A stretch of DNA of 64,000 nucleotides from an uncultured Acidobacteriota bacterium (GCA_963804995.1 CAWDSK010000003.1:544001-608000); one strand, 5' to 3'. Shown: positions 3,031 to 41,277, counted from the first letter of the stretch. Notes: generated by a model not told the origin, from the letters alone. Numbers and translations are program-made.

Positions 3031-5008
3031 TTATCGGACTTGATTCCTTATCGCTCCGCTTGGGGCAACGCCAAGACGATTGCCTCTCGACAACCGCCCG
3101 GCCGTCGACAGATTCATGGGAGAAGCAATAGGGCTATAAGTGGCGGGGTTGTGGTCTTTGCCGTGGCAGGTGAGGTAGCAGGTGCCGCTGCGGGAGCCGA
3201 GGCGCTGATATTGCAGGATGCCGCCGCTGCTGGGCCCCACAATGGTGCGGTCAAAATCAATGAGCATGGGCCCCTGTGAGGCATGCGGAGCGTGGCAGGT
3301 GGAGCAGGCCGCATTTGCGCCACGGACGTGAATGGAATGGTAGGTGAAGCTCTGGTCCCGCAGGACGCTTCCCTCCACGTCATGACACTTGTCGCACAGA
3401 GCGTAATTGGTCACCGCGTAGGAGACGCCCGTCGACGAACCTCCGGGCGCCGCCGGCGGCGGTTCTAAGGAGCTTTCCCGTTCGAGCAGATGCGGCAGGT
3501 TCGAGCCGTGCGGTCCTGCAGGGCCGCTGGATGTTCCCAAGTTGCGCCCTGTGTCGTTGTTGTGGCAATCGCTACAGTAGATGTAAGTGACGGCCGAAAG
3601 TTGGCGGCTGGTCATGGTAGCTCCGCCCGGCGTGATGGGCTGCGGTCGCAGACTGGGGACGTCACCCCCCAACCCCGTGGCCAAATTCCGGGGGCGTGTC
3701 ACAGGATGAAAGGAGGGGCTGAACTGGAACTGCATGCGCGTGTTGAAGCGGTTGGGACTGCTCGCCTCGAACATGCGCTGGGGATTGCGCCCGTAACCCA
3801 CGCCCACCACACTGAAATCGGTGGATTGAGGCTTATTCCCGCTATCGGCATGACACTTAAAGCAGATCTCGTATTCGTTGTTGCTTTGGAGTATGTGTGC
3901 ATTGCCAGTGGATTGGCCTTTGACACCTAGCAACGACCCCTTCACCAGCGGCGGCTGCGCCGATACGCTGTTGGCGAAGTGGGGGTTATGGCAGTCGACG
4001 CACGCGGCGTGGCGGGGCGTGCCACTCCCCGTTTCGGGAAGCGGGTGCTGCGTGGAAGTCGGACTCTCCGCAGCATCGTGGACCGTGGGCGTGATTTGCA
4101 CCGGGTGCCGGTAAGTTTTGGCGGTGAATTCGCCTTCGACGTTCAGAGTGGTTACGCTCCCATTGTGGCACTGGTAGCACGTGGACGATTCCACAAACTT
4201 GACTAACCTCTGGGCGGTGGCGGGAGCGTGCGGCCGATGGCAGCTTTCGCAGCCATTCTTATTAACCCCGACGTACCCCGTGTGCGCGCCTTGCGCCGCG
4301 GTATATTTCACATCCTCGCGCGGGTCGGGCGGCATTCGGTGTACGGAGTCTTCCCAGCCCGCCTGGACGTGGCAGGTTAAGCAGAGCGCGGATTCGGAGT
4401 TCGGGGTCACAAGGAATTTCCAGAACCGTCGGATCCAGATTTTCCTGGTGAGGATCGTGGCAACTGGTGCACTGTACCTTTCCTGCGCCATCCAGGCGGA
4501 CCGGGCCGGTGGCGGTAAGGGGTTTGATCCCACTTGTGTGCGCAGGAGCAAAACCAAACGGATGGTCGTCTGTGAATCCCTTGTTCGCTGCCAGGTTGGA
4601 AGCAGAACTCGCCGGAAGGGCATACGCCGAGCCTTGTACAAATCGAAGCTGTCCATCATTGACGGTGTCGCCCAGGGCAATCGTCCCATCGTGGCAACTC
4701 AGGCACAGCTTGGAGACATCCTGCGGCTGAATAGGCGCGACGCTGGACGCTTGCGTCGTACTGGAGTAAGCCGGGAACTGCGCCGTTGACACTTTCTGGT
4801 TCCACAAATAGCTCCCGGGGTTCGAGTTGTGCGAGGTGTGACAAAAGGCGCAGGGGTCGCGGCCGGAAACCGAGCGTACGGTGGCTGGCGAAGAAGCCCG
4901 AAAATCGTGCTTGGAATTCAGCACAGCAGATATCTTATCGCCTCCCAACGCCGGCAGTACCATGGCCGCCCAGAGCGCCAGCAACGAGATGTAATTCACC
5001 CTACGCAA
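3031..5008 (-). CDS. Large multiheme c-type cytochrome (11 CXXCH + 1 CX3CH) with an OmcE-like N-terminal tetraheme module; split by a +1 frameshift near 4417-4426
   Basis: ORF 4262-5008 has a signal peptide, KHDF, CAFCH, LWN, CLSCHDG, DDHP and CTSCHDPH. It continues in ORF 3031-4689 from KFLVTPN with CLTCH, CESCH, CYQCH, CVDCH, CFKCH, CSDCH, CDKCH, CSTCH and CYLTCH. Removing one base gives about 658 aa. Confidence 0.88.
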
Positions 5009-6154
5009 CTACTGTCCTCCGCTGGGAGCTGTACCATCCGGCCGCAAACGAAACATCTGCACGCGGCGGTTGAACCCATCCGCCACGTAAATCCGGTTTT
5101 CGCTGTCCAAGGCGATGGCGGTGGGGAGGAAGAACTCTCCGGCCCCGGCTCCAGTTGAACCGAAGACAAATAATAAATGACCTTCCGCGTCGTAGACCTG
5201 CACGCGGTCGTTGCGGCCCTCAACTACGTAGACCCGTCCATGCTCGTCCACAGCGATACCCTTGGCCTTGTCGAAATCGCCCGGGCCGCTGCCCGCATTG
5301 CCAAATGCGGATAGAAACTTCCCCTCGGGGTCAAAGTGCTGGACACGGAAATTCAACGAATCGGTGACCCAGAGGGAGCCATCGGGGGCCACGGCGATGT
5401 AGGTCGGATAATTGAACTCGCCGGGTCCATCCCCACGTTCGCCAAAGCGGCCCACCACCTTGCCCTCGAGCGTCATCATCACCACTCGCATGGCAACGGT
5501 GTCCACGACGTAAAGGCGGTCGCGCTCGCTGTCGACGGCGATTCCCGTCGAGCGCTTGAAGATGCTCTCCTGGCGGTCCAACGCGCCCAGCGCCCGCAGG
5601 TACTTGCCTTGGGGATTAAAAAGGAAGATGCGCGCCCGCACGGCGTCGGAAACATAAATCCGCCCCTGCGCATCGCAGGCCACCGCTATGGGCGCGAGGA
5701 AAGGATCGGAATCGGGCGGGTGGAATTCTTGATACCGCCGGCGCGCCGGGTCAAATACGTGCAGGACTCGCTCCTTGGTATCGGCTACCAGAATCCTTCC
5801 TTGCGGGTCCACCGCGACGCCGTTGGGCGCCAGCATGGCTTTCTGCTGCTCCTCCAGCCCGATGATCGCCTTCAATACCCGCTTGCCCCAGGAGGGCTTG
5901 CCTTTAACATCGGCGGCGCTGCGCAGCTCGCCCACCCAGTCCACCGCGCCCAAGGCGATGGGATTGATGGGCGATTTCGGACTATCGGCGACCATCAGCC
6001 GCCCCAGCCCAACCGCCAGAAAGCAACAAACTGCCACCACTCGCGGGAGCTTATTGCTGTAACGGCGGTCTCTGACCGCCGCCTTTTGGTTCAACAGATT
6101 CCGGCGGTCAGAGACCGCCGCTACAGCAAGGCGAATTGGGTTAAGGCGCGACAA
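5009..6154 (-). CDS. Exported NHL-repeat six-bladed beta-propeller protein
   Basis: Repeated F-x-x-P-x-G-(I/V)-A-V-D...(I/V)YV-D...RVQ-F units; hydrophobic N-terminal segment. Confidence 0.92.
   Translation of the reverse strand: MSRLNPIRLAVAAVSDRRNLLNQKAAVRDRRYSNKLPRVVAVCCFLAVGLGRLMVADSPKSPINPIALGAVDWVGELRSAADVKGKPSWGKRVLKAIIGLEEQQKAMLAPNGVAVDPQGRILVADTKERVLHVFDPARRRYQEFHPPDSDPFLAPIAVACDAQGRIYVSDAVRARIFLFNPQGKYLRALGALDRQESIFKRSTGIAVDSERDRLYVVDTVAMRVVMMTLEGKVVGRFGERGDGPGEFNYPTYIAVAPDGSLWVTDSLNFRVQHFDPEGKFLSAFGNAGSGPGDFDKAKGIAVDEHGRVYVVEGRNDRVQVYDAEGHLLFVFGSTGAGAGEFFLPTAIALDSENRIYVADGFNRRVQMFRLRPDGTAPSGGQ
6057..6126. repeat. GTAG-type REP doublet inside the 5' end of the NHL ORF
   Basis: TGTAACGGCGGTCTCTGACCGCC ... 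GGCGGTCAGAGACCGCCGCTACA inverted pair. Confidence 0.8.
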
Positions 6155-6163
6155 CGTTGACCC

Positions 6164-8038
6164 TCACAATATCTTGAAGTCTCTCGTTATACGAAAGAAG
6201 TAGCGGTTCAGGAGGTTGCCTGTCTGGACGGGAACGGTTATGTTCTCGATCTCGTAGGATCCGAAGCCAACCTGTATTCTGATTTTGCCCACACGGTAGC
6301 GAGCGCTGATATCCGCTGTGCGGAATTTCGCTTGCGAGCTGCTGAGCAGGTCCCTTTCCGACATGTAATCGGCCGCCACATCCAATTGCGCACGCACCCG
6401 GAGCGCGGCCGTCGCCGTGTCGACGCGCGAGATCCGGTTGAGCAAGGGGGTGGCCACCAACTCGCTCAAGGGCAGCGGAACGCTCAGAAACTGCTCGGCG
6501 TTAATGATGGCGGGAAATAGCGCGCCCGCGCCCACTAAGTCCTGGTGACCCGCGCTCAGCGACAACCGTTGGTGCTGGACCTGCGCCGCATAGTTCGTCG
6601 TATCCGATTTGATGTCGCCGCTTACGCCCAGGTACTCCAAGCGAGCCCGTTCGGCGGTTCCCCGCACATACCAGCCAAAGAGGCGGGATGATTCCGCCTG
6701 CAGGCGCAGGCTGCGGGTGGAGGAAAATCCGCCGAGTTCATCGACGAGGTTGTACCTGGAATCCATCCCGGTAGCAAGCAGACGAAGGCGACCGGGGTCG
6801 CCCCAGCCAACTCTCCCCTGCAGGTCATTGGAGAACGTTGTCGGGTGGTGCCCCAGGGTCGTCCCCAGCAATTGGTAGTGGCCGGTGTATGTCCCCCCCA
6901 ATTCCAGCCCCCGCCAGGTTCTCCCAAAAGAGACGCCACTCAGAGAATCGAACTCGGAGGTCTCCGCCTCCGCCACCCCTTCGACCGCCGTTACACGATA
7001 TTCCTGAACTTGTTGAAACAGGTTCACGCTGGGGATGACCTGATAATTCACTCCCGCCCCAAGGCTATTCGAAGTGAACGCGGGAACCTGAATCAGGCTG
7101 AGGTTGCTGCCAGTGCCCTCTGTTCCGGTCAGGGAATTGGCACCACTCTGGGAGATGTTGGTGAAAGTGTAATAGTAGTTCGAGGAAAGTTTGGGCGTGT
7201 GCTTGATCTGGAGTTGGGAAGTGACATAAGCGTCCGTGAACTGCCCGGCGGGCTGGCCCAAAAAACTTTCCTGCTGCCATTCCAGGCGATCCGCAATGTT
7301 TAACCGGGCCTTGTCGTCCCAAAACTTGCGTGAAACAAAAAGGTCCTGCAATTTCAGATTTTCCCGGAACGGACTGGAAAGAGCGAAAGCCCCAACCGCG
7401 TTGGTCGTGGTGGAGAAGTCGTTGAAGCCGCCGTTCCATTTCCAACTCTTCCACTCGTCGGAAGCATCGATACTGAGCTCGTTCAGGCGGTAGCTCGAAT
7501 TGGTGAGCGAGGTGGGCAGTTGCACTTCGTTGGCTTGGTTAAGGTAGCGGACGGTCAGGTGAGGCAGGCGGCGGGTGCGAAGTTCCCACGTGAATCCGAA
7601 TGAGGAGGTGTCTGAATTCTCACCAAAACCCGTGCCATTGGCCCCGTACTCACTCTTCCGGTAGAAAATCTGGAGCGGAAACGAGCGTTCGGGCAGGAAA
7701 GATGCGCTGAAACCGACATCATAGACGTTGTCTCGAAACCCGCCCAGAGCTACCGCGTTTGAGGCGTGCTCGCCGCTGTAGTTAATGGTGAAGGGAATGA
7801 ATTTGGGATTCTTCAGGTACCCGCCCGCGAGAAGGTTCCAATCAAAGCCGGCGGTCGAATAATCGGAAGTATTGTTGGGACTGGAAGGCGTGAATAACGA
7901 CGTGTCGGTGGTTTTGCTGAGGTCGGCGCCCAGGGCGCCTTGCAATCGCCAATGTTCAGGGGTCGGGTCCTGTGCGAAACTCGGCAGCGCGGCCGCTAAG
8001 GCAATCGTCACGAGTTGAATTGCCAGTCTTGCTCTCAT
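6164..8038 (-). CDS. Putative outer-membrane beta-barrel (porin of a porin-cytochrome conduit)
   Basis: Cleavable signal peptide (…LPSFA/QD); 624 aa rich in S/T/N/G/Y/F with alternating amphipathic strands; C-terminal YFFRITRDF strand; no heme motifs; embedded among cytochrome genes. Confidence 0.78.
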   Translation of the reverse strand: MRARLAIQLVTIALAAALPSFAQDPTPEHWRLQGALGADLSKTTDTSLFTPSSPNNTSDYSTAGFDWNLLAGGYLKNPKFIPFTINYSGEHASNAVALGGFRDNVYDVGFSASFLPERSFPLQIFYRKSEYGANGTGFGENSDTSSFGFTWELRTRRLPHLTVRYLNQANEVQLPTSLTNSSYRLNELSIDASDEWKSWKWNGGFNDFSTTTNAVGAFALSSPFRENLKLQDLFVSRKFWDDKARLNIADRLEWQQESFLGQPAGQFTDAYVTSQLQIKHTPKLSSNYYYTFTNISQSGANSLTGTEGTGSNLSLIQVPAFTSNSLGAGVNYQVIPSVNLFQQVQEYRVTAVEGVAEAETSEFDSLSGVSFGRTWRGLELGGTYTGHYQLLGTTLGHHPTTFSNDLQGRVGWGDPGRLRLLATGMDSRYNLVDELGGFSSTRSLRLQAESSRLFGWYVRGTAERARLEYLGVSGDIKSDTTNYAAQVQHQRLSLSAGHQDLVGAGALFPAIINAEQFLSVPLPLSELVATPLLNRISRVDTATAALRVRAQLDVAADYMSERDLLSSSQAKFRTADISARYRVGKIRIQVGFGSYEIENITVPVQTGNLLNRYFFRITRDFKIL

Positions 8039-8155
8039 TGTCTCTCCGCTTGTTCACGGGCACGTTGCCTTCCAAAGATGCAGATGCAAACGAAACCAGA
8101 GTCCTGAGTTAGGAGTTCGCGATCAAAGTCGCCCTTTCAATTTATTCCAGGGCGA

Positions 8156-8402
8156 CCCCCTCACCCGACTGCGGGCCGAAGCTGAACTTGTTTACTGCTC
8201 CCAGGTACCCCTTCGGAGGGAGTAGGCCCGGCCCGCCCCGGCTGATGAAAACGCCGGTTGCGATCCACCCTCTCCCCCAAGGGGGCGAGGGCAAAGAAAA
8301 ATAAATCAACTCTCCCCTCGCCCCCCTTGGAGGAGAGGGCAAAAAAATCAAACCAACTCTCCCCTCGCCCCCTTGGGGGAGAGGGGCCGGGGGTGAGGGG
8401 GT
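8156..8402. repeat. Palindromic repeat family A (CCCCTCACCC...CCGGCTGATGAAAACGCCGG...CCACCCTCTCCCC-AAGGGGGCGAGGG)
   Basis: Related copies at about 46917-47070, 49398-49530, 49577-49683, 60491-60560 and 60858-60933. Confidence 0.85.
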
Positions 8403-8553
8403 TCGCGAACAATCAACAAACTTCTGACCCCGGACACCAGGGTGATGCGGACCAGCCGACAGCGGAGGCCGGAGGTAGGTTGCCCAGACCTCCACCGCCG
8501 GGAAAATAAGAATGAACTTCCGACTCAGGACACTACCGCCCCCTCGATGGGTA

Positions 8554-9327
8554 TTACTTGTGGCAGTAGGTGCACCAGTTGGTCGTCGCAACGAGCAAAG
8601 CTCGTCCGTAAGGGAAAGTAGTGCTCGCCCCTGCCGACGCCCCATTGTGAGGGTCATGGCAAGTCGCGCACTCCATCATGTAATTGTTGCCGTAAAGGGG
8701 TACATATCCGTTCGCGTCAACCCCATTAGCGCCGGCTGGAGCTGTCATCGAGGCTGCTGCCGCCAGGGCGGCGGTATATTGGAAGTGGACAGGGTGCGAC
8801 TTGGTCAGGTCCGAGATCGTCATGGTACTCGGCATGAAGGTTGCGCCGCTGACACCTAAACCAGTGCTCGTAAAAGTTGAGCCAGTGGCTGGAAGCCCCA
8901 ATGTCGACTCATAGAAGCTGGCAACCGCGACCGTACCATCGTGGCAGCTTAGACACAGGTTGCTGACCGTCAGCGTAGTAATGGTGTTGTCAGTCCCGAG
9001 CTCGGTGGGGCCGGCAGCCGCACCCAGGTGAGCGGTGAAGGTGTCGCTGCTGTAAACGCCGTAGGTCACTGAGGGGGAAGAAATAGTGTGGTTCCAGAGC
9101 AAATAACCCGGCGCCGAAGCAGAGTTATTTGCTGTTTTGTGCGTGATGTGGCAAAAGAAGCAAAGATTGGTTGAGGGAGCACTGGTTGCCGAGCCGAAGG
9201 TATAGCCGGACGTCAAATCGTGCGGTGTACCGACGATGCTTGCTTTGGTAGCCTGCTGGGCCGAGGCGGTTACGGTCAGAGCCGTCACCATCATCATCGC
9301 CAGTAGGAGTCTTTTTAGATTTGTCAT
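8554..9327 (-). CDS. OmcE-like tetraheme c-type cytochrome (copy 2), candidate nanowire subunit
   Basis: Sec signal; IVGTPHDL, CFFCHITH, LLWN, YSS, SNLCLSCHDG, DLTKSHPVHF, VPLY, ECATCHDPH and terminal CTYCHK. Motif order matches Geobacter OmcE as I recall it. Confidence 0.85.
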   Translation of the reverse strand: MTNLKRLLLAMMMVTALTVTASAQQATKASIVGTPHDLTSGYTFGSATSAPSTNLCFFCHITHKTANNSASAPGYLLWNHTISSPSVTYGVYSSDTFTAHLGAAAGPTELGTDNTITTLTVSNLCLSCHDGTVAVASFYESTLGLPATGSTFTSTGLGVSGATFMPSTMTISDLTKSHPVHFQYTAALAAAASMTAPAGANGVDANGYVPLYGNNYMMECATCHDPHNGASAGASTTFPYGRALLVATTNWCTYCHK

Positions 9328-9459
9328 AATGACCTCTCGATAGAATTTTATTACTGAGGCCGCAGAATGTTTCTCCGCGGTTGAGAAAAAACTTGCTTAC
9401 CACCTGCCTTCAAAAATCATGAGGACGCGCCAAATACCCTGGCGCCCCCTCGCTGGGGA

Positions 9460-10248
9460 TTAAGTGTGGCAGTAAGTGCACATACCGCCGCTAGCCGCAT
9501 AAGTGAAAAAGAACTGCCGGGCAAAGGGCATAGTACTGCCGTTCCCTACTGACGCCCCATTGTGCGGGTCATGGCAAGTCGTGCATTCCAACATGTAATT
9601 GCCGCCGTAAAGGGGTACTGCTCCGGCCCCGTCAACCGAATTAGCGTTGGCCGGAGTTTTCATCGCGGCCGCATTCGCCAGGTTAGTGGTATATTGGAAG
9701 TGGACAGGGTGCTGCTTGGTCAGGTCCTTAATCTCAAGTCCGTTATACGGAAACATCTTGGTGGTATAACCCAACGCCACCCCTGGAAGCCCGCCTACGT
9801 TCTCATAAAAGCTATTCATTGCGACCGTACCATCGTGGCAGCTCAGACACAGGTTGCTGGTCGTCGCCGAAGTGACGGAGTTGCTAGCCCCGAGGTCAGT
9901 GGGTGGGGCGGCGGTGGCCGCAGCCAGCACAGCGGTGAACGAGTCGCTGCTATAAACGCCGTAGGTTGGTGTGGAGGAGAGAGTTTTGTTCCAGAGTAAA
10001 TAACCCGGCGCCGAGGAAGCGACATCCGCGGTCTTGTGTGCGATGTGGCAAAAATAGCAAAGATTGGTCGTGACCGGCGCAGTTACACCGCCTTTGGTAT
10101 AGGTAGCTATAGTTCCAGTGTGTGCGGTCCAGGTCAAATCGTGCGCTGAATGGACGATGCCTGCTTTTGTAGCCTGCTGGGCCCAGGCCGTTGCGGTCAG
10201 AGCCCCCAGCACAAGCATCGCCAGGAGAAGTCTTTTAAGAATTACCAT
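9460..10248 (-). CDS. OmcE-like tetraheme c-type cytochrome (copy 1), candidate nanowire subunit
   Basis: Paralog of 8554-9327: IVHSAHDL, CYFCHIAH, LLWN, YSS, SNLCLSCHDG, DLTKQHPVHF, VPLY, ECTTCHDPH and CTYCHT; GAGAGG RBS before ATG 10248. Confidence 0.85.
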   Translation of the reverse strand: MVILKRLLLAMLVLGALTATAWAQQATKAGIVHSAHDLTWTAHTGTIATYTKGGVTAPVTTNLCYFCHIAHKTADVASSAPGYLLWNKTLSSTPTYGVYSSDSFTAVLAAATAAPPTDLGASNSVTSATTSNLCLSCHDGTVAMNSFYENVGGLPGVALGYTTKMFPYNGLEIKDLTKQHPVHFQYTTNLANAAAMKTPANANSVDGAGAVPLYGGNYMLECTTCHDPHNGASVGNGSTMPFARQFFFTYAASGGMCTYCHT

Positions 10249-10329
10249 AATCACCTCTCAACAAAATTTCCTTCGTGAAGCTGGTGAATGTTTCTCTGTA
10301 CTTGCGGAAAAGCTTTCTCACCTCCTTTC

Positions 10330-11436
10330 TCATGGCTTTCGCGGCGAGCCCGGATGGTCGCCGCCCAGGAACTGAAAAATTTGCACGCGGGAATTGAGCG
10401 CATCCGCGACGTAAACGCGGTCCTGCCTGTCAATGGAGATTCCCAGGGGCAGGTTAAAGCCACCCGGCGCCTTGCCGAAATTGCCCACGAACATCAGGAC
10501 CGTTCCTTTGGGATCGAAGATCTGGACGTTGTTGAAGGCGGCGTCCACCACCCAGATGTTGCCTTCACTGTCGAACGCCACGCCCTTGGGCCGCGTAAAG
10601 TAGCCAGGCCGATCGCCACGCCCGCCAAAGCGCCGCACAAATTTGAAGTCGGGGGAGAAAATCTGGACGGAGCAGCTTCCCGTATCGGTCACCGCAATGT
10701 AGCCGTCCCGGTTCACCCCCACTCCGATCGGATAGTTGAATTCCCCGTTTTTAGTGCCCCGCTTACCTACCGTGGCGATGTTTTGCAGCGTTTCCATGTT
10801 GTAGACCAGGACCTGATGGAGGTGGCTATCCACCACAAAAAGCCTGCGCCGGTTTTCATCCAGCGCCAGCAGCGCAGGGTTCTGGAGCGCCGGGGTCTGC
10901 CCGATCATGGCTTGCAAGTGGCCATCGCGGTCGAACTTCAGGACGCTGTGCAGCGACGGGTCGGAAACGTAGATATTGTCGTGGCTGTCCACGGCCAGGC
11001 CGAGGGGCATCTTGAGCACAATTCCCCGGTCACCTTTGATTCGGATGACTTGGTGATGATCCTTGTCCAGCACATAAAGTGTGGCGCTCTGGGCCGAGGT
11101 GAGCAAAATTCGTCCCTTGGAATCACTGGCCACGTCGGAGGCCCGCTTGAAGAACTCGACTCTGTTGGGGTCGGGATTGCCCACCATGCGATCCACCATA
11201 CTGAGCTTCTTGCGCGGCTCGATGTCGAAGTTGTTGGAAAACATCTCGAGGAACCGGACGCGCGGCTTGTCGGGAGACAGAGGCCAAACCATGGTGGGCT
11301 GGTCAGACGCGGAATAGCCAGGCGGCGCCTTTTCTTTGCCTCCCCCTCCCGCCACCCCCGGCGCGCCCCAAAGCATTACCAGGACGGCGGCCAAAACTAG
11401 GCCGGTTCCATTTAACTTCGGCAGGCTGACTCTCAT
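10330..11436 (-). CDS. Exported NHL-repeat beta-propeller protein
   Basis: Signal peptide, VWPLSPDKPRVRF N-terminal motif and NHL repeats (FNYPIGVGV, FTRPKGVAFD, FNLPLGISID); overlaps the stop of the upstream cytochrome (ATGA). Confidence 0.92.
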   Translation of the reverse strand: MRVSLPKLNGTGLVLAAVLVMLWGAPGVAGGGGKEKAPPGYSASDQPTMVWPLSPDKPRVRFLEMFSNNFDIEPRKKLSMVDRMVGNPDPNRVEFFKRASDVASDSKGRILLTSAQSATLYVLDKDHHQVIRIKGDRGIVLKMPLGLAVDSHDNIYVSDPSLHSVLKFDRDGHLQAMIGQTPALQNPALLALDENRRRLFVVDSHLHQVLVYNMETLQNIATVGKRGTKNGEFNYPIGVGVNRDGYIAVTDTGSCSVQIFSPDFKFVRRFGGRGDRPGYFTRPKGVAFDSEGNIWVVDAAFNNVQIFDPKGTVLMFVGNFGKAPGGFNLPLGISIDRQDRVYVADALNSRVQIFQFLGGDHPGSPRKP

Positions 11437-12347
11437 GGGTTCACCTTCTCTCCAGGCTTCGCCGGGGTATCCGGCATCTTCTTGGTTTGCTGCCCCGTTG
11501 GCGGCGCTTGGCTCTTGTTTTTGGCTGCCTTTTGCTCATCGATTATTTGGTGGCAGGTGGTGCAAACGTCCCGACCGCCCTTCACCGAAACAATGAGGTT
11601 TTCGTCCCCCGAGGCATGATGAGCATGGCAACTCAGGCACGACATTTTTTCTCCCGCGCGCAACAGGTCCGGTACCACGGCAACCGGATGGGTCACCCAG
11701 GGATGTCCGAAGCGCTGCGTGGGGTCAAGATCGATTTTCGGAATGGCGTCAAAATCGGCCTTCGAGATTTTCTGTGAGCCGAAAAGGGTTACCGTCTCGG
11801 CCGGGGCTTGGACATCGGCGTGGCAGGCGAGGCAGAGTGCATTTCCCGCCGCCCGTGTCTGTGCCTTGAATTCCGAGGAATGTGGATCGTGGCAAGTCAG
11901 GCACTGGCCACTCTTAAAGGGGCCGTGCAGCACAGGGTCCTTGGGGGCCTCATGGCACATCACGCAAAGATCGCCCCCGGTGGCGACCAAAGTGATGGTT
12001 GTCTTGTTTTTTTCTGACGTGGTTTGGTGGCAGTTCTCACACCCCATCCCCACTGCCGTGTGTACGAATTTCCCCTGGTTTTTGTCGGGATGGCACTGGA
12101 GGCAGGTCTCGCTTTTCAGGCCCTTGGTTTCAACAAAGGGATGCTCCGTGGAGTCGGCAGCAGAAAGTTTGCTAATCCTCAAAACCAAAACTGCCGATAT
12201 AACGAGAAGGAGTAAAAGTCCGCGTAGGGGCCCAACCGCTAACCGAATTCTAATAGAATTACCCGCTTGTCCCATTGTCCCAAGACCTGCTGTGCGTGGC
12301 ATAGAGAGCAAGGGATTCGCCAAAGGCGTGAATATTTTGTCTGCCAA
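11433..12347 (-). CDS. Heptaheme c-type cytochrome (cytochrome c3-like, doubled CXXCH), membrane-anchored or periplasmic; start uncertain
   Basis: CLQCH, CENCH, CVMCH, CLTCHDPH, CLACH, CLSCH and CTTCH; N-terminal hydrophobic helix. Confidence 0.9.
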   Translation of the reverse strand: MADKIFTPLANPLLSMPRTAGLGTMGQAGNSIRIRLAVGPLRGLLLLLVISAVLVLRISKLSAADSTEHPFVETKGLKSETCLQCHPDKNQGKFVHTAVGMGCENCHQTTSEKNKTTITLVATGGDLCVMCHEAPKDPVLHGPFKSGQCLTCHDPHSSEFKAQTRAAGNALCLACHADVQAPAETVTLFGSQKISKADFDAIPKIDLDPTQRFGHPWVTHPVAVVPDLLRAGEKMSCLSCHAHHASGDENLIVSVKGGRDVCTTCHQIIDEQKAAKNKSQAPPTGQQTKKMPDTPAKPGEKVNP

Positions 12348-12754
12348 TGTCGTTAGAAACCGTTAAGATTCTATACTTTCCAGTTGGGTACAATTTGGCA
12401 TCTGTAGAAGTGTGGTGTTTTGCAGCATAGTGCGTTAATTTGCACAATAGTTCGTATTCTAATGGGGTTACTCACGTATATGGGTTGGCATTGAAGTTAT
12501 GTGACGTGTTGTTACATCGATAGCTGGGGATTTGCCCTTTATCCACCTTCGCTTCTGCCCTAAGAGGGGCTCCCCTTCTCGTAAGTGCGCTGGGATGTGA
12601 ACTGACGGGGATATGGAAGGCGCAGACCCCGAAGGTTCTTGCCCATAGCTACAGTAAGTCCAGGAGCAGCGGGGTCAATCAAGCAACTTTTCGAATCGCG
12701 CCATCAAACCCTATGGTACAATCGCGTTGGAAATCTGGTTCGCAGTCACGTCGT

Positions 12755-12851: not shown

Positions 12852-14201
12852 TCAGAGGGCGCGGAGCCAGGCAAGCATCGCGTCAGCCTTGGCGGCAGGC
12901 ACGCCTTCTGCCCACAAGCAATCACTGTCCTTCCGTAGCAGAACGGTCACGCCGTTCGCCGCCGAACCGACAAACAGGTCCGTGGTCGAGCGCTTGTCTG
13001 TCGCGAGATCCGGGTACTTGTGCCCCAGTATCGTGTGGTAGTCACGGAAAAACGCCAAGGCGGTTTCCGGGCTTGTCCAGCGCGTGCGCGCCACCAGAGT
13101 ATATTCACCCCCGCTGGAATGCTCATAGAGCAGGTAGCGATCAGCGAGCCAGGCGTGGCTAAGGTTCTTCGCTTCATCTTCGGAAATGAGTTGGCCGAGA
13201 AACGCATAATAGCCGAGTTCGCCCATCGTATTCTCGGCAAGGAAATTGAGGCCTGCCACTCCGTCCAGCGCCGCCGGATGGGCCAGCGCCAAGGTGGGTA
13301 GAGCCTGATGGTCAAAGTAGGCGCCAGGCTCAAAGATTTGTTTGGTGACAGTCGGAGGGTTATCAAATACCGCGTTGAGACCTTTCCATCCGCCCCGCTG
13401 GATGGCGCCTTGCGCGAAGCCCATGCCTTGCATATACGGGAACAGGGCCTGCATGCGGAAGAAATAGGGCGCGCTCAAGAAGGTGGGGTACTCTTCGAAC
13501 TGCTGGTGGATGACCATCTCCATCAGCGGCCCTAAGGAAGGCAATTCCGCCAGACTCAGCGGTGCCGTCATTTGTTGGATCATGGCCGCCGTGGCGTAGC
13601 CCTCCACCAGGGCCTGGCGAGCGTTCGAGGCGTCGTCATTGTCGCGAACCGCATGCAGGAATCTATCCAGATCCCAGTTCTGATCCTGCAGGGCGTGCGT
13701 GAGTTCATGCGAAAGCACCATGGTTTGGGTTTCCGCCGGGATCCAATCGGCGATGAACATGGTCTTTTCCTTGGGGTCATAGAAGCCCGCGGCCTGCTCC
13801 GTGTAAAAGCTGATCAGAAACTTCTGCAGGTTGAAGTCCCGTGACACCAGGCCAAAGGCGCGCAACTGTGCCTCCTGCGCGTGGACTTCGGCGGGCGTCA
13901 TCTCCGTGTGCAGATTCTCGGTCAGGTATTTCTGGATTTCCGCGCGGCTGACCACTTGTTTCTTCAGCGGCCCTTTGATGGGCAGGCCGGTGATCTCACT
14001 CATCTGGTGAAGAACCTGGTCGGCCTGCGACAGCAGGTCCTGGGCCGGCGCCTGCTGCCCATACGCAATGGCCGCCGGGGCGCCCAGCAAGCTGACGGCT
14101 ATCAGCAGCCGCAGGAATTGGAATCCATACCGTTTAATCGGCTTCAAGATATGCATGGTGTCGAACGTCCCGTCTGTAAGGCTAGAAGCAAGAGTGTTCA
14201 C
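12852..14201 (-). CDS. Exported protein with HExxH zinc-metalloprotease motif; true start probably downstream of 14201
   Basis: Signal peptide; AGFYDP, LSHELTHALQDQ, ALVEGYAT and FPY motifs. Confidence 0.75.
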   Translation of the reverse strand: MNTLASSLTDGTFDTMHILKPIKRYGFQFLRLLIAVSLLGAPAAIAYGQQAPAQDLLSQADQVLHQMSEITGLPIKGPLKKQVVSRAEIQKYLTENLHTEMTPAEVHAQEAQLRAFGLVSRDFNLQKFLISFYTEQAAGFYDPKEKTMFIADWIPAETQTMVLSHELTHALQDQNWDLDRFLHAVRDNDDASNARQALVEGYATAAMIQQMTAPLSLAELPSLGPLMEMVIHQQFEEYPTFLSAPYFFRMQALFPYMQGMGFAQGAIQRGGWKGLNAVFDNPPTVTKQIFEPGAYFDHQALPTLALAHPAALDGVAGLNFLAENTMGELGYYAFLGQLISEDEAKNLSHAWLADRYLLYEHSSGGEYTLVARTRWTSPETALAFFRDYHTILGHKYPDLATDKRSTTDLFVGSAANGVTVLLRKDSDCLWAEGVPAAKADAMLAWLRAL

Positions 14202-16475: not shown

Positions 16476-16979
16476 ATGACCTACCACCGATTTGAGGACC
16501 TTCCTGTCTGGCAAGCGGGCTTGGAACTGGCCCGGCGAGTGTATCAGCTTACCGCTGGCCCGCCCTTCCGCCGGAATCGCAGCCTGCGCGACCAAATCGA
16601 GCGGGCGGCCGTCTCCGTCTCGAATAATATCGCCGAGGGTTTCGAGCGGGGTACGACGCAGGAGTTGCTGACCTTTCTCTACATTGCCCGCGGCTCGGGA
16701 GGAGAAATCCGCTCCATGCTCTGTCTGCTGGCCACGCTCGAGGATTTCGCCCATCTCAAATCTGAAATTTCAAATTTGAAATCCATGGCCGAAGGCGTTT
16801 CCCGCCAGTTGCGTGCCTGGGCCGATTCCTTGCAGAATTCCCCTATCACCGGTCAGCGGTATCTCACCGAAAAGTCCCGGCGCGCCAGCAAGGCCCGCAC
16901 TGAGCGTGATGAATTCCTAAGGAGCCTTCAAGATATTCGAGAGGGAAAAACGCCAGGTAGGAATTTACCTAACACGTAA
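16476..16979 (+). CDS. Four-helix-bundle protein (23S rRNA IVS protein / Avd-like family), copy 1
   Basis: RFEDLPVWQ, LRDQIERAAVSVSNNIAEGFER and FLYIARGSGGE. Confidence 0.92.
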   Translation: MTYHRFEDLPVWQAGLELARRVYQLTAGPPFRRNRSLRDQIERAAVSVSNNIAEGFERGTTQELLTFLYIARGSGGEIRSMLCLLATLEDFAHLKSEISNLKSMAEGVSRQLRAWADSLQNSPITGQRYLTEKSRRASKARTERDEFLRSLQDIREGKTPGRNLPNT

Positions 16980-19565: not shown

Positions 19566-20079
19566 ATGACCTACAACCGATTTGAGGATCTTCCTGTCTG
19601 GCAAGCGGGCTTGGAACTGGCCCAGCGAGTGTATCAGCTTACCGCTGGCCCGCCCTTCCGCCGGAATCGCAGCACAAATCGAGCGGGCTGCCGTCTCTGT
19701 CTCGAATAACATCGCCGAGGGTTTCGAGCGTGGTACGACCCAGGAGCTGCTGACCTTTCTCTACATTGCCCGCGGCTCAGCGGGAGAGGTCCGCTCCATG
19801 CTCTGTCTGCTGGTCACACTCGACGATTTCGCCCATCTCAAATCTGAAATTTCAAATTTGAAATCCATGGCCGAAGGCGTTTCCCGCCAGTTACGCGCCT
19901 GGGCCGATTCCTTGCAGAATTCCCCTATCACAGGTCAGCGGTATCTCACGGAAAAGTCCCGGCGCGCCAGCAAGACCCGCACTGAGTGTGATGAATTTCT
20001 AAGAAAGCTTCAGAATATTCGAGAGGGAAAAGAGCCGGGCGGGAATCTACCTAACACGAAAAGGCAGGGGGACACCTGA
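19566..20079 (+). pseudogene. Four-helix-bundle protein copy 2, frameshifted by an 8-nt deletion near 19673
   Basis: Near-identical to 16476-17009. Copy 1 reads AGCCTGCGCGACCAAATC where copy 2 reads AGCACAAATC, and the copy-1 stop TAA is AAA here. Confidence 0.88.
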
Positions 20080-29972: not shown

Positions 29973-31555
29973 TCAGGATTGTTCCGTCCGGCGCGTGGCG
30001 GCAGTCATGGTGAGACCCGTGTCGTAATCCAGTTCGCGGGGAAGATAGCCATCGTCTTCACGCTGGCGGGTGTATCCGTCGTCGGCCCAGGAGACGGGGT
30101 AGTCCGGTCTCCAGGCGCGGCGTCCCCAGTAATAGCCTCGGAAGGGATCGCGTGAGACGTTCATCCAGTTCAGCAGGCGATCATGCAGGTCATTGCGAAT
30201 AGCCGCGTGCTTTTCCGATTCAATCAGGTTGACCATTTCGTACGGATCAGTCTCAAGATCGTAGAGCTCGTCGGTGGTCATCAGATTGATAGCCAGCTTG
30301 TAGCGGCCATCGCAGACGCAGCGGATCGGCTGGAAGGCGCCGTAGCCGTCGTGGTCCACTTCATAGCGGCCAAATTCGATGAAGACTTCTTTGCGGACGT
30401 GAGCGGTGGGGTCCTTCAGCAGCGCCAACATGCTGCCGCCTTCGAGGGTTTTGGGAATCTCGAACCCGAAGAATTCCATCAGCGTGCCGCTGAGGTCCAG
30501 ATGCGAGACCAGGCTGGAGGACTTGACATTAGCGGGCGTGTGACCAGGCCACATGGCGATAAAGGGCACGCGCGTGATCTCGTCATACATGGCGGGACCC
30601 TTATCGGTCAGGTGGTGCGAATCAAGAAACACGCCGTGGTCGCTGGTGTAGAGAACCAGGGCGCCGGGCGCGCGGGTTTCCGCGGAATCGAGCACGCGGC
30701 CGATTTCATTGTCGATAAAGGTGTGTGACCCAAAGAACTGGGCACTCTGAATAGGCCCTGGCGACCGGTGCAATCTTGGCCCGGCCCACACGCGCTGCTC
30801 TTCGGGCTTGTGGCGCAGATCGTCCTGGAGGTTCGGGTGCGACGGGAATGTATAGTCCTTGTACATGCGGGTGTATTCAATGGGGCAAAGGCAGGGACCG
30901 TGCGGCTCGTCGTACGAGATTACAAGCAAGAAGTCCTCGTTATGGTGCTTCTCAGAAAATCCAGGGCGCGATTGGTGCAGCGGTGGCCGTAGCAATACTC
31001 CGCCGTCCAGGAAGGATCGTTGCCCGTGGCGCGGTCGCGTGAACGCACGCGGTCGGCGGGAGAAAGCTCCGAGAGGTAGTCGCGCATGTCATACCAGTAG
31101 TCTTTGTCCCAACCGGCAACAGGACGCCCTGTATCAAAGTAATCGGTGCCGGTAAGGTGCCACTTGCCCATGAAGGCGCAGTGAATGCCCTTGTCGGTGA
31201 GGCGCTGGCCAATGGTGTGCGTGGTGTCGCCCAGCGGCATGCAGTTTCCCCAGACGCCGTTGGTGTGGGGAGTAAGCCCTGTCCAGAGGGCGGAGCGGGC
31301 GGGCGAACAAACAGGCTGGCAGTTGTAGGCGCGCTCAAACGTGACACCACGCGCCGCAATGCGGTCAAGGTTGGGGGTGTGCAGCCCGGTGTTCACATTG
31401 CAATTCAGCATGTCGTAGCGGACGGATTCACCCAGGATTACGATCGCCTGGCGCAGCGGCCCCTTCTCAGTGCGGCTCGATACGGGTACAGGTTTTTGGG
31501 CGACGGTGGCCATGCTTGCGGCGCCGGCCAGTCTAATGAAATCTCTGCGCTTCAT
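29973..31555 (-). CDS. Tat-exported Cys-type sulfatase (YidJ-like), split by a single-base deletion near 30953
   Basis: KRRDFI Tat motif; CSPARSALWTG; GKWHL; ALDFL continues in the other frame as EKHHNEDFLLVISYDEPH; YTSDHG and ELYDLETDPYE. Confidence 0.88.
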
Positions 31556-39365: not shown

Positions 39366-41277
39366 TTACTTGCGGATAATCTTGGGAAAGTTCCTGGGAA
39401 CAATTCCGACGCCTTCCTTTACAGTGATGATGCGATCGATGGGCAGGTTGGCAAGTTTGTCCACGGCGCCACTGGGCCAGACAATTTCGAGTGCATCGAC
39501 ATTCTTTCTTTGCCCCAGCCCGAAGTGAAGGCGCGGGTCCTGGGCGGACATATAACCCATCCCCCCCTGCGCCTGCCGGTACTCGATGAAAGTGCCGGAG
39601 GTAAGCTTCAGCGCCGCGCCCCGGCCGTCCCGATTGGATTTTGTCCCCACCAGCATTACTTCCAGCCAGTGGTTCGAATTTTCGCCTTCGTTGCGCAAGA
39701 GCTGCGGGTAGGAATTGCTGTTCGAGATGGCGATACCCAGGCGCCCGTCGTTATCAAAATCCGCTACGGCCGACCCGCGCCCCACGGTGGGTTTCATGAA
39801 GTCCGGCCCCATCTGCTCAGACACTTTTTCGAATTTACCTCCGCCCAGGTTGCGGAACATCAACTTGGGCTCCGCCCAAGTCTCCTCCGAGTGGTACAAG
39901 CGGATATTGTCCAGCATGCTCCCATTCACCTGGAAGATGTCCACCCAACCGTCGTTATCGTAATCGAACATCCGGGCGCTTACGCCGCTCAGAAGAATGG
40001 CTTTGTTGCCGAGGCCAGAGGTAAAGGTGACGTCATCGAAGGTCTCGTCGTGGTTGTTGCGATAAAGCCGGTTCAGCTCAAAGTCCAGGTGCGTGACGTA
40101 CACGTCCAGCCAGCCGTCGCCATCGACGTCCGCCGCGTCCACACCCATGCCGGCCTCGTATTTCCCGTCGTCACTGGCCGCCACGCCTGAGGTGAACGAA
40201 ACATCGCGAAACGTCCCGTCATGATTGTTGATGAAAAGGAAATTCGGCCAGGTATCATTGGCCACAAAGATGTCAGGCCAGCCGTCGTTATTAAAGTCCG
40301 CCAGCACCACACCCATGCCCTTCGCTTTCGGGCTTCCCCACCCCGGAGGCGTCGCTAACGTCTGTGAAGGTGCCGTCGTGGTTGTTGTGATAAAGCTTCA
40401 AGCGTTGGCCCCGGTAATTGTCCGGATGGCAATAAGCACGGTAGCCGGGCTTGTGGTCGCCACACCAAAGATTATTTTGGGGCGACCATTGGATGTAGTT
40501 GCAAATCAGCAGATCCAGATAGCCGTCCCGGTCGTAATCAAACCACCCCGCGCTGGTTGACCACCCGCCCTCATCGGCGACGCCTGCCTGGGCGGTCACA
40601 TCGGTGAAGGTCCCGTTGCCGTTATTGTGGTAGAGGATGGTGTGGCCGTAGCCGGTCACCAGCATGTCCGGATAACCGTCGTTGTCAAAATCGCCTACGG
40701 CCACGCCTTGTCCGTAGAACCCTGCGGCGCCGACCCCGGCCTTTTCCGTGACATCGGTGAACGTTCCATCGCCATTATTGTGATAAAGCGCCGAGCGCAG
40801 AGGGCGCGAGGGCTTGTACCATTCCGTCGCCGCGGTTTGGACCAGGTAGAGATCCATCAGCCCGTCCTGGTCGTAATCGATCCAGCCCAATCCGTTGCCC
40901 ATGGTCTCGAGGTAATTCTTTTCTTCCGTCATCGTGGCGTCGTGCTGAAAGGTGATTCCGGCGGCCTGCCGTACGTCCGTGAAGTGAATTGGGATGCCGG
41001 CCGAATGCGGCCCGGCGTGCTGGACCTCGTGATGGGCGACTTGACTTCTGTTGACCGCGCCGGCCTGAGGGGGAGCGCCAGAAGTCATGGGCCACAGAGC
41101 AGCAAGGGGCTGCGCACGTAATAGACTCCACAAGGCCGAGTTCGCGAAAAGTAGGGCGGCGGTCAGAAGGGCCACAGCCGCCAATCGGTGCGACTTGGGA
41201 GTCGTATTTGGATTTTGTTTTTTCAACTGGGTTTCTCGTCCCGCCCAACTATAGCGCAACCCGTCCTCCGACCTCAA
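39366..41277 (-). CDS. CRTAC1/ASPIC-UnbV family FG-GAP repeat protein, split by a +1 frameshift near 40327
   Basis: DYDQDGLMDL, DFDNDGYPD and DYDRDGYLD repeats; GKPE(A)KG joins MGVVLADFNNDG; C-terminal LHFGLG...IVWPSG UnbV domain. Confidence 0.9.

Follow-up and report, generated by a model that had tools for sequence, protein, structure and literature searches.

The window analyzed here, a 64,000-nt stretch of DNA from an uncultured Acidobacteriota bacterium (GCA_963804995.1 CAWDSK010000003.1:544001-608000; "the window" always means this whole stretch), contains two adjacent genes, gene1 and gene2, for OmcE-like tetraheme cytochromes. The pair probably arose by a lineage-specific tandem duplication of a complete leader-gene-terminator module of an OmcE-type nanowire, leaving two surface variants of one wire. 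Both genes belong to a cytochrome gene cluster that runs from 12347 to 3031 entirely on the minus strand, with gene2 as the upstream copy and gene1 as the downstream copy (Table 1).

Each of the two proteins contains exactly four CXXCH motifs, the last of which (CTYCH) leaves a single residue before the C terminus, and four candidate distal histidines, which in gene1 numbering are H36 (HDL), H63 (CH-x2-H), H178 (HPV), and H227 (DPH). A preliminary description of this DNA had pointed out these motifs, the histidines, and the terminal position of the last CXXCH. All of them hold up: the four distal histidines and four CXXCH motifs are invariant columns in an 89-sequence family alignment, and the same columns are invariant when gene2 is the first row. 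The two proteins share 152 identities over 269 positions (57%, E 4e-96 by BLASTP), and a MAFFT codon alignment gives 62% amino acid and 72% nucleotide identity over 249 codons. All 21 family-invariant residues are present in both. In the 43 closest relatives, 85 columns show conservation of 90% or more; of these, gene1 retains 77, gene2 retains 81, and the relatives themselves retain 74 to 85. Neither copy appears decayed at the sequence level. In the codon alignment, differences between the paralogs cluster after the HDL motif, at approximately residues 99 to 120, and at residues 140 to 172 and 229 to 250.

The open reading frame (ORF) listed for gene2 begins at a GTG at 10254, two codons 5' of an ATG. 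Because the ATG following the Shine-Dalgarno sequence AGAGGTGATT is the start in 17 of 17 orthologs whose start was read, gene2 was taken from this ATG. By eye, the N termini of both paralogs resemble signal peptides, with a hydrophobic core followed by A-S-A or A-W-A before QQ, and residues 2 to 22 of gene1 form a helix in an AlphaFold2 (AF2) model. Pfam matches are limited to generic heme-motif families for the subunits and a Porin_4 hit at E 0.37 for the nearby barrel, and NCBIfam offered no specific model matching either the subunits or the barrel protein encoded nearby.

Sequence and fold comparisons both point to OmcE. A phmmer search of all Protein Data Bank (PDB) sequences aligned residues 13 to 256 of gene1 with residues 10 to 230 of Geobacter sulfurreducens OmcE (7tfs_A; E 1.6e-9), and the next-best matches had E values of at least 0.2. 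In this alignment, the histidines of the gene1 HDL, CH-x2-H (twice), and HPV motifs lie opposite OmcE histidines. The AF2 model of gene1 (89-sequence alignment; pLDDT 72.9, pTM 0.70) has a single Foldseek match in the PDB, again 7tfs (E 2.5e-6, TM 0.51/0.63). Similarly, VIA-align against 48,161 representative chains gave a Z score of at least 2 for two chains only, 7tfs_A (Z 11.7, rmsd 3.2 A over 183 of 202 residues, 26% identity) and OmcS (6ef8_A; Z 3.0). Archaeal tetraheme nanowires are not among the Foldseek or VIA-align matches to this model, an omission that carries no meaning. The preliminary description had called the proteins "OmcE-like" and named a significant alignment to OmcE as the check; the alignment is significant and full length, and the specific fold match, the eight histidine ligand positions, and the gene composition of the cluster (see below) agree with the name.

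In both OmcE and OmcS, one heme is ligated by a histidine of the adjacent subunit (PMC9473688; PMC12954529). Since all four distal histidines are conserved, the intersubunit donor is conserved, whichever of the four it is. The HDL histidine of gene1 falls opposite the second residue of the modeled 7TFS chain (chain range 30 to 231) and is a plausible donor candidate on an N-terminal arm. Gene1 and gene2 are intact OmcE-family tetraheme proteins that keep all eight histidine ligand positions. G. sulfurreducens OmcE is likewise a tetraheme protein of about 230 residues with four CXXCH motifs, the last near its C terminus, and with distal histidines that align, and a barrel, propellers, and two multiheme cytochromes are also encoded in the cluster around its gene. 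It differs in that identity is only about 25 to 26%, the organism belongs to another phylum, and the window has two tandem copies.

The gene cluster provides further support for this assignment. According to Petersen et al. (2026, PMC13712944), omcE clusters of the smallest kind invariably contain genes for OmcE, a large beta-barrel, and a pair each of multiheme cytochromes and beta-propeller lipoproteins. The window cluster has this published minimal composition, with the propellers identified by their NHL repeats, and its sole difference is that the subunit gene occurs twice. Geobacter omcE clusters contain 15 to 70 glycosylation genes, whereas the window cluster, with 37 window proteins scanned, has no such block; in Desulfuromonadia, omcE clusters lacking adjacent glycosylation genes go with an unglycosylated filament (PMC13712944). 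The paralogs had been described as having diverged, Ser/Thr-rich loops that are possibly glycosylated. The changes are indeed concentrated in loops, and serine plus threonine make up 25.7% of gene1 and 20.2% of gene2, compared with a median of 10.2% for 24 other window proteins. However, the family median is 20.5%, and Ser/Thr richness is therefore a trait of the whole family and is not peculiar to this pair. For glycosylation itself we found no supporting evidence, as Ser/Thr richness is family-wide and no glycosyltransferase family was detected among the 37 window proteins at E <= 1e-5.

The duplication appears to have included regulatory DNA. The duplicated unit spans about 915 bp, from just after the NHL stop codon through the terminator T-run, and comprises leader, gene, and terminator. 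The native gene2 leader contains a AAGGAGGTGAGAAAGC box, a degenerate GGAGAA-N3-TTCTCC inverted repeat (4 of 7 pairs), and the Shine-Dalgarno sequence AGAGGTGATT. The two leaders are identical at 61 of 86 bases; this is close to the expectation from synonymous divergence, so the divergence of the pair alone is no sign of constraint. The leader is, however, recognizable in 19 orthologous loci (62 to 86% identity to the gene2 leader), whose proteins are 42 to 55% identical to gene1. In these orthologs, the AAGGAGGTGAGAAAGC box comes right after the NHL stop codon, GGAGAA-N3-TTCTCC lies about 45 nt before the ATG, and AGAGGTGATT is present. Seven cells of the inverted repeat are changed on both sides, a number reached by 2 of 500 shuffles, and slid controls give 40 to 60% paired cells. 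These counts lend modest support to either a hairpin or a palindromic binding site. A small ORF spanning the gene2 leader was ruled out, as the indels among ortholog leaders are not multiples of three.

Downstream of the genes, CGAGGGGGCG follows both stop codons, and about 27 nt past each stop are homologous. Rather than being a motif of its own, CGAGGGGGCG forms the 5' arm of a conserved intrinsic terminator hairpin. The gene2 terminator (-22.4 kcal/mol, 12 pairs plus one mismatch) is homologous to 13-bp terminators of orthologs, and an inverted repeat, GAGGGGGCGC...GGCGCCTCCTC, followed by a T-run, was read by eye in 14 of 14 orthologous downstream regions examined. Three of the ortholog terminators were folded and have stems of 12 to 14 pairs and energies of -25.3 to -28.7 kcal/mol. 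Behind gene1, the 3' arm has been replaced by a 19-mer (8516-8534) that resembles an end of the neighboring repeat element, and the hairpin is gone, with folding no better than that of shuffled sequences. The preliminary description had proposed that homologous upstream regions and a shared downstream motif marked a duplicated unit with regulatory DNA. This proposal is borne out by the conserved leader and terminator, with the downstream motif corrected to a terminator arm.

The dispersed palindromic repeat between gene1 and the barrel gene is absent from the orthologous spacers of four metagenome loci (L100, L104, L106, and L115) and has 54 matches elsewhere in the genome, most of them covering a core of about 120 nt. 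A fold of 8250-8395 within it gave a z score of -7.0. We also considered positions 8098-8534 as a single MITE with 21-nt inverted ends, which was rejected, as ortholog spacers show that part of this region is ancestral and that the insertion is 8097-8441.

In a tree of the 45 closest sequences and 6 outgroups (51 rows), gene1 and gene2 are sisters with support of 96/89, and a 48-row tree again recovers them as sisters (97/94). Their end branches measure 0.38 and 0.39 in the 51-row tree, where the median is 0.13, and 0.30 and 0.32 in the 48-row tree. A single subunit copy is found in the seven closest metagenome loci that are long enough (L096, L099, L100, L104, L106, L115, and L134). Similarly, a genome of the same genus (G005) has one subunit gene in a cluster that is otherwise alike. 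Among other species of the genus, 18 of 24 gave a match, and a short subunit was found only in G005 and G019; the subunits of these two, at 39 to 41% identity, fall in a separate clade of the tree. The duplication is lineage specific and followed the split from the nearest known relatives. By the Nei-Gojobori method, gene1 and gene2 differ with a dS of 0.47, a dN of 0.315, and a dN/dS of 0.67. Along the gene, dS varies between about 0.17 and 1.6. Of 155 identical residues, 125 also share the third codon base. These dS and dN values and the third-position identity indicate a fairly recent duplication, followed in both copies by fast protein-level change that mostly spared the segments binding heme.

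Tandem subunit pairs occur elsewhere, in counts that are lower bounds as many loci lie on short contigs. Adjacent short-subunit pairs were found in 2 of 78 genome loci (L056, Candidatus Frackibacter; L058, Calditrichota, with two pairs) and in 3 of 80 metagenome loci (L118, L121, and L126). The two copies in Candidatus Frackibacter are sisters (100/99), indicating an independent event. In the sister clade formed by the three metagenome loci, the upstream copies cluster together (100/96), the downstream copies cluster together (100/99), and both sets form one clade (98/95), which points to one older duplication kept through three lineages. The tandem ORFs in L118 are about 12 nt apart, as calculated from ORF coordinates. 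This retained pair can be taken as the best argument that two subunit types may be useful together. Tandem pairs have thus arisen several times and have been retained in one clade.

The family to which the paralogs belong is large. Among 1.84 billion 50%-identity cluster representatives, 1859 match at E <= 0.001 and 206 at E <= 1e-10, and the named genomes with relatives represent many phyla, including Planctomycetota, Verrucomicrobiota, Calditrichota, Nitrospirota, Gemmatimonadota, and Acidobacteriota. The usual locus has one short OmcE-like gene (about 205 to 290 aa) and a long cytochrome (about 560 to 750 aa) a few kilobases away. In the 58 related loci of at least 12 kb, NHL proteins are found in all 58, short and long OmcE-like proteins together in 44, and a relative of the 304-aa cytochrome in 47. 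Relatives of the barrel were detected by single-sequence phmmer in only 10 of the 58, because the barrel diverges fast. The N-terminal 200-odd residues of the long cytochromes match the subunit profile at about 1e-40, and in loci from many phyla this module has four CXXCH motifs and four distal histidines (16 ligand residues) in 89 of 89 cases. All 16 ligand residues are also present in 145 of 154 short ORFs, and the nine exceptions likely stem from truncation at contig ends. In the window, the N-terminal module of the long cytochrome matches gene1 at E 8.2e-8. This OmcE-like head is a candidate for a built-in filament base or anchor.

We propose that the subunits would be exported by Sec and receive four c-type hemes in the periplasm. 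They would then cross the outer membrane through or at the 28-strand MtrB-like barrel, aided by the two NHL propellers, and form a head-to-tail polymer in which a histidine of one subunit completes the bis-His ligation of a heme in its neighbor, giving a continuous insulated heme chain. Electrons would be supplied by the 7-heme and approximately 12-heme cytochromes. With its strong ribosome-binding site and the terminator that follows it, the subunit gene could yield the major subunit in excess of the machinery, as in pilus operons. Duplication of this module would have left two subunits that share a heme core but have different loops at the surface. The surface of the solved OmcE filaments is made up of loops, which bear glycans or make bundle contacts (PMC13712944). 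Because the paralogs share a heme core and differ in loops that would be surface exposed in a filament, two surface variants of one wire are the simplest reading. Such variants could mix in a single filament or build two separate ones, the two possibilities that the preliminary description had named.

Several observations weigh against this proposal or support it only weakly. The dN/dS of 0.67 and the long end branches would equally fit relaxed selection. Confidence in the AF2 monomer model is middling, with residues 230 to 250 below a pLDDT of 50. In a complex prediction with residues 24 to 257 of gene1, residues 24 to 262 of gene2, 4 hemes, and 3 controls, the median score was 0.43, compared with 0.00 for the best control, which supports contact weakly. 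Among solved complexes, 116 of 157 attain the mark for such scores, as do 2 of 215 mismatched pairs, and scores of 0.60 or less comprise only 18 of those 157 complexes plus both passing mismatches; these counts are rough here, as the pair was run with custom alignments and a riding ligand, and memory of the solved OmcE filament could explain the pass. The runs agree in at least 85% of contacts, with a partner pLDDT of at least 80. Contact between subunits is plausible from this model, and the prediction does not separate mixed from homotypic contact. OmcE-like tetrahemes are widespread, and perhaps only some assemble (Petersen et al., PMC13712944).

The regulatory evidence has its own counterpoints. 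In the leader inverted repeat, 75.7% of cells are paired compared with 71.6% in shuffled leaders, a level reached by 6 of 500 shuffles, so that covariation support for the hairpin is only modest. RNAalifold on 21 leaders returned a long-range helix of 5 pairs at -0.45 kcal/mol with zero compensatory changes, on which we do not rely. Folded as single sequences, the two leaders do not outperform shuffled versions (z scores of -0.31 and -0.71), and an Rfam search at E <= 1 found no match to the leaders, its only matches being below threshold and on the palindromic repeat. Scanning 8000-12700 for sigma-70-like promoters found 0, compared with 1.9 expected, so independent transcription of both copies lacks promoter support. 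To our knowledge, no acidobacterial OmcE-type filament has been observed so far.

The integrity of the cluster is a further point against it. Relative to four intact 652-aa orthologs (L100, L104, L106, and L115), the frame of the long cytochrome is broken by one extra base near 4425, leaving two overlapping ORFs (4262-5008 and 3031-4689). The break may be an assembly indel or a real frameshift, and a real one could mean that the cluster is partly disabled. Elsewhere in the window, genes for a sulfatase (29973-31555, minus strand) and an FG-GAP/ASPIC protein (39366-41277, minus strand) each comprise two overlapping ORFs that cover successive parts of a Pfam profile, an apparent frame break. All three breaks may reflect assembly error.

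Alternatively, the two paralogs could be parts of one structure, as an obligate heteropolymer or as a major subunit with a specialized minor one serving as tip, terminator, or anchor. The older duplication retained through three lineages, the close spacing of the L118 ORFs, the conservation of every donor and acceptor histidine in both copies, and, weakly, the heterodimer score relative to its best control are all consistent with this. Further, Petersen et al. regard the anchor and tip of the filament as unsettled and report seeing no candidate for either in omcE operons (PMC13712944). However, divergence in the window is symmetrical (0.30 and 0.32), where a major and minor pair would be expected to diverge asymmetrically. 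The retained gene2 terminator and the separate leader and ribosome-binding site of gene1 fit separate dosage better than a fixed stoichiometry, a single subunit gene suffices in most clusters, and the complex prediction cannot tell heterotypic from homotypic contacts. We therefore consider a single structure built from both paralogs unlikely. A more elaborate arrangement, in which three OmcE-type modules form one rooted mixed filament, seems similarly doubtful. Here the head of the approximately 12-heme cytochrome would be the cell-proximal base, the rest of that protein would thread the MtrB-like barrel, and the paralogs would coassemble, one of them as a tip, terminator, or alternating subunit. 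If true, this arrangement would provide an anchor and a tip, which the authors of the Desulfuromonas soudanensis structure say they are unable to find in omcE operons.

The proteins might also not polymerize at all but act as monomeric or surface-bound tetrahemes, the outer partner of a porin-cytochrome conduit with an MtrC-like role. Indeed, the barrel is structurally best matched by MtrB from the Mtr complex: its AF2 model (34-sequence alignment; pLDDT 79.7), with 28 beta strands behind a signal helix, matches 6r2q_B at E 2.2e-11 and TM 0.52/0.50. The Shewanella MtrCAB complex (6R2Q) resembles the window cluster in that a large outer membrane barrel is encoded beside multiheme cytochromes. 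It is unlike it in that identity is 7% at a TM of about 0.5, the window barrel has 28 predicted strands, and its partners are OmcE-like rather than MtrC-like. An acidobacterial cluster called EET1 has been described as a conduit, in a main text in which "nanowire" and "tetraheme" do not occur (Fiorito et al. 2026). Moreover, just two OmcE filaments have been solved or imaged (PMC13712944). Set against this, the heme-ligand set is fully conserved, including whichever histidine OmcE donates to its neighbor, the fold match is specific to OmcE, imaged filaments come with the same cluster composition, and the presence of a terminator after the subunit gene is in keeping with production of the protein in large excess. 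A nonpolymerizing role is therefore improbable in our estimation.

Finally, one copy could be redundant and drifting toward loss, the duplication being a neutral accident without functional consequence; the dN/dS ratio (above 1 in some segments), the long end branches, the destruction of the gene1 terminator with a repeat element landing alongside, and the frame break in the long cytochrome would suit this, but both ORFs are intact with a start codon and Shine-Dalgarno sequence, the family-invariant residues and conserved columns are kept within the range of the relatives, and a dS of 0.47 represents ample time for disabling mutations, none of which occurred, making such a loss in progress very unlikely.

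Returning to duplication of a wire module as the preferred explanation, the locus can be compared with other known systems. The OmcE bundles of D. soudanensis WTL are similar in that they derive from a "small" cluster without glycosylation genes and have variable surface loops over a conserved heme core (PMC13712944); the comparison is by description only, and bundling is not readable from sequence. A parallel to the tandem omcS and omcT genes had been drawn in the preliminary description. As an analogy it stands, since nanowire subunit genes of the OmcS family in Geobacter, including omcS/omcT, have been duplicated repeatedly, sometimes recently and in adjacent positions (bioRxiv 10.1101/2025.11.06.686851). 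It does not extend to homology, as OmcS carries six hemes, has no relationship to the paralogs in sequence or overall fold, and does not appear among the gene1 sequence matches. According to the same study from the Bond laboratory, outer-surface cytochromes evolve fastest and their loops tolerate change. In a survey of Desulfuromonadia, OmcE and OmcP are counted together as a single prevalent group.

Within Acidobacteriota, the closest described counterpart is EET1, a "porin-scaffold-cytochrome" cluster of peat Acidobacteriota (Terriglobales/UBA7540) with a porin, a scaffold, and multiheme cytochromes, one of them "OmcE-like", which is transcribed in situ (Fiorito et al. 2026, bioRxiv 10.64898/2026.05.27.727921). 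We presume that it is the same cluster type as that in the window, a comparison made by description and not by sequence; its main text makes no mention of a tandem arrangement. The cluster survey by Petersen et al. lists five phyla and does not name Acidobacteriota, and the words "Acidobacteri", "duplicat", and "paralog" are absent from its main text (PMC13712944). In the papers returned by our literature searches on OmcE and Acidobacteria and on OmcE, nanowires, and tetrahemes, we found no description of tandem OmcE-type subunit genes. The locus is thus a fairly ordinary acidobacterial addition to the known OmcE-type system, and its new part, the lineage-specific duplication, would not surprise a specialist.

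Its value lies in what the pair allows. OmcE-type filaments have been imaged in two Desulfuromonadia species only, and their assembly, anchoring, and termination are described as open questions (PMC13712944). The window offers a natural two-subunit experiment, with the same heme core, different loops, a leader for each gene, and one terminator left, in which subunit mixing in nanowires and the role of loops are directly testable. In addition, two features that emerged from the comparison across many phyla, the conserved terminator behind the subunit gene and the ever-present OmcE-like head on the long cytochrome, suggest how a filament may be rooted. If acidobacterial clusters of this kind are those reported to be expressed in deep peat, they would bear on carbon turnover there.

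Table 1. Features of the tandem subunit pair and its gene cluster, in window coordinates
Feature	Position	Strand	Remarks
gene1, downstream OmcE-like tetraheme paralog	8554-9327	minus	257 aa; 4 CXXCH; AF2 model
gene2, upstream OmcE-like tetraheme paralog	9460-10248	minus	262 aa from ATG; 4 CXXCH and 4 distal His
Native gene2 leader	10249-10329	minus	81 nt; entire spacer from NHL stop codon to gene2 ATG
Duplicated leader copy before gene1	9328-9411	minus	Inverted repeat GGAGAAACATTCTGC, 6 of 7 pairs; Shine-Dalgarno AGAGGTCATT
Intrinsic terminator after gene2	9412-9451	minus	Hairpin 9421-9451; CGAGGGGGCG 9443-9452; U-run 9412-9416
Remnant of second terminator copy	8506-8553	minus	5' arm CGAGGGGGCG 8537-8546 kept; -10.2 kcal/mol, z +0.77
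Dispersed palindromic repeat, MITE- or REP-like	8097-8441	.	345 bp; CTGGT on both sides; between gene1 and barrel gene
7-CXXCH cytochrome, first cluster gene	11433-12347	minus	304 aa; hydrophobic N-terminal segment; Paired_CXXCH_1 E 2.4e-29
NHL-repeat beta-propeller 1	10330-11436	minus	368 aa; NHL E 9.9e-31
Large outer membrane beta-barrel	6164-8038	minus	624 aa; 28 predicted strands
NHL-repeat beta-propeller 2	5009-6154	minus	381-aa ORF; phmmer matches in common with NHL query
Long cytochrome	3031-5008	minus	11 CXXCH and one CX4CH; OmcE-like N-terminal module

The remaining cluster genes fit the arrangement described above. The 304-aa cytochrome is likely a periplasmic or inner-membrane-anchored electron feeder, and the true start of propeller 2 is probably further downstream than the ORF start. 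The cluster is bordered by tpiA (1621-2379) and a gene for a putative peptidase (12852-14201). The genome also contains four PF01578 cytochrome c assembly genes. The triosephosphate isomerase encoded in the window is 82% identical to a protein from an Acidobacteriia/Terriglobia metagenome-assembled genome, the sole organism name among the 120 matches listed, and by this similarity the genome would belong to the Acidobacteriota (Terriglobia). Subunit homologs carrying Terriglobales, Acidobacteriales, and Candidatus Angelobacter names are 42 to 44% identical.

Between the pair and the machinery genes, about 110 nt upstream of the barrel gene (GGTTTCGTTTGCATC...GGCAACGTGCC...AGCGGAGAGA; window 8039-8096) are conserved in the orthologous spacers of L096 to L115. 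This region may be a promoter or regulatory region for the machinery genes past the terminator. A sigma-54 promoter in the conserved GGTTTCGTTTGCA upstream of the barrel was considered and rejected by eye, as the GG-to-GC spacing is 10 and not 12.

In the same-genus genome G005, a 357-aa ORF (L093, 8604-9677, minus strand) lies between the single subunit gene and the barrel gene, where the window has no counterpart; by eye, it resembles a peptidyl-prolyl isomerase of the SurA/PpiC type. Elsewhere in the window, two PF05635 ("23S rRNA-intervening sequence protein") genes, at 16476-16979 and 19582-20079, both on the plus strand, flank RraA-like and enolase-superfamily genes.

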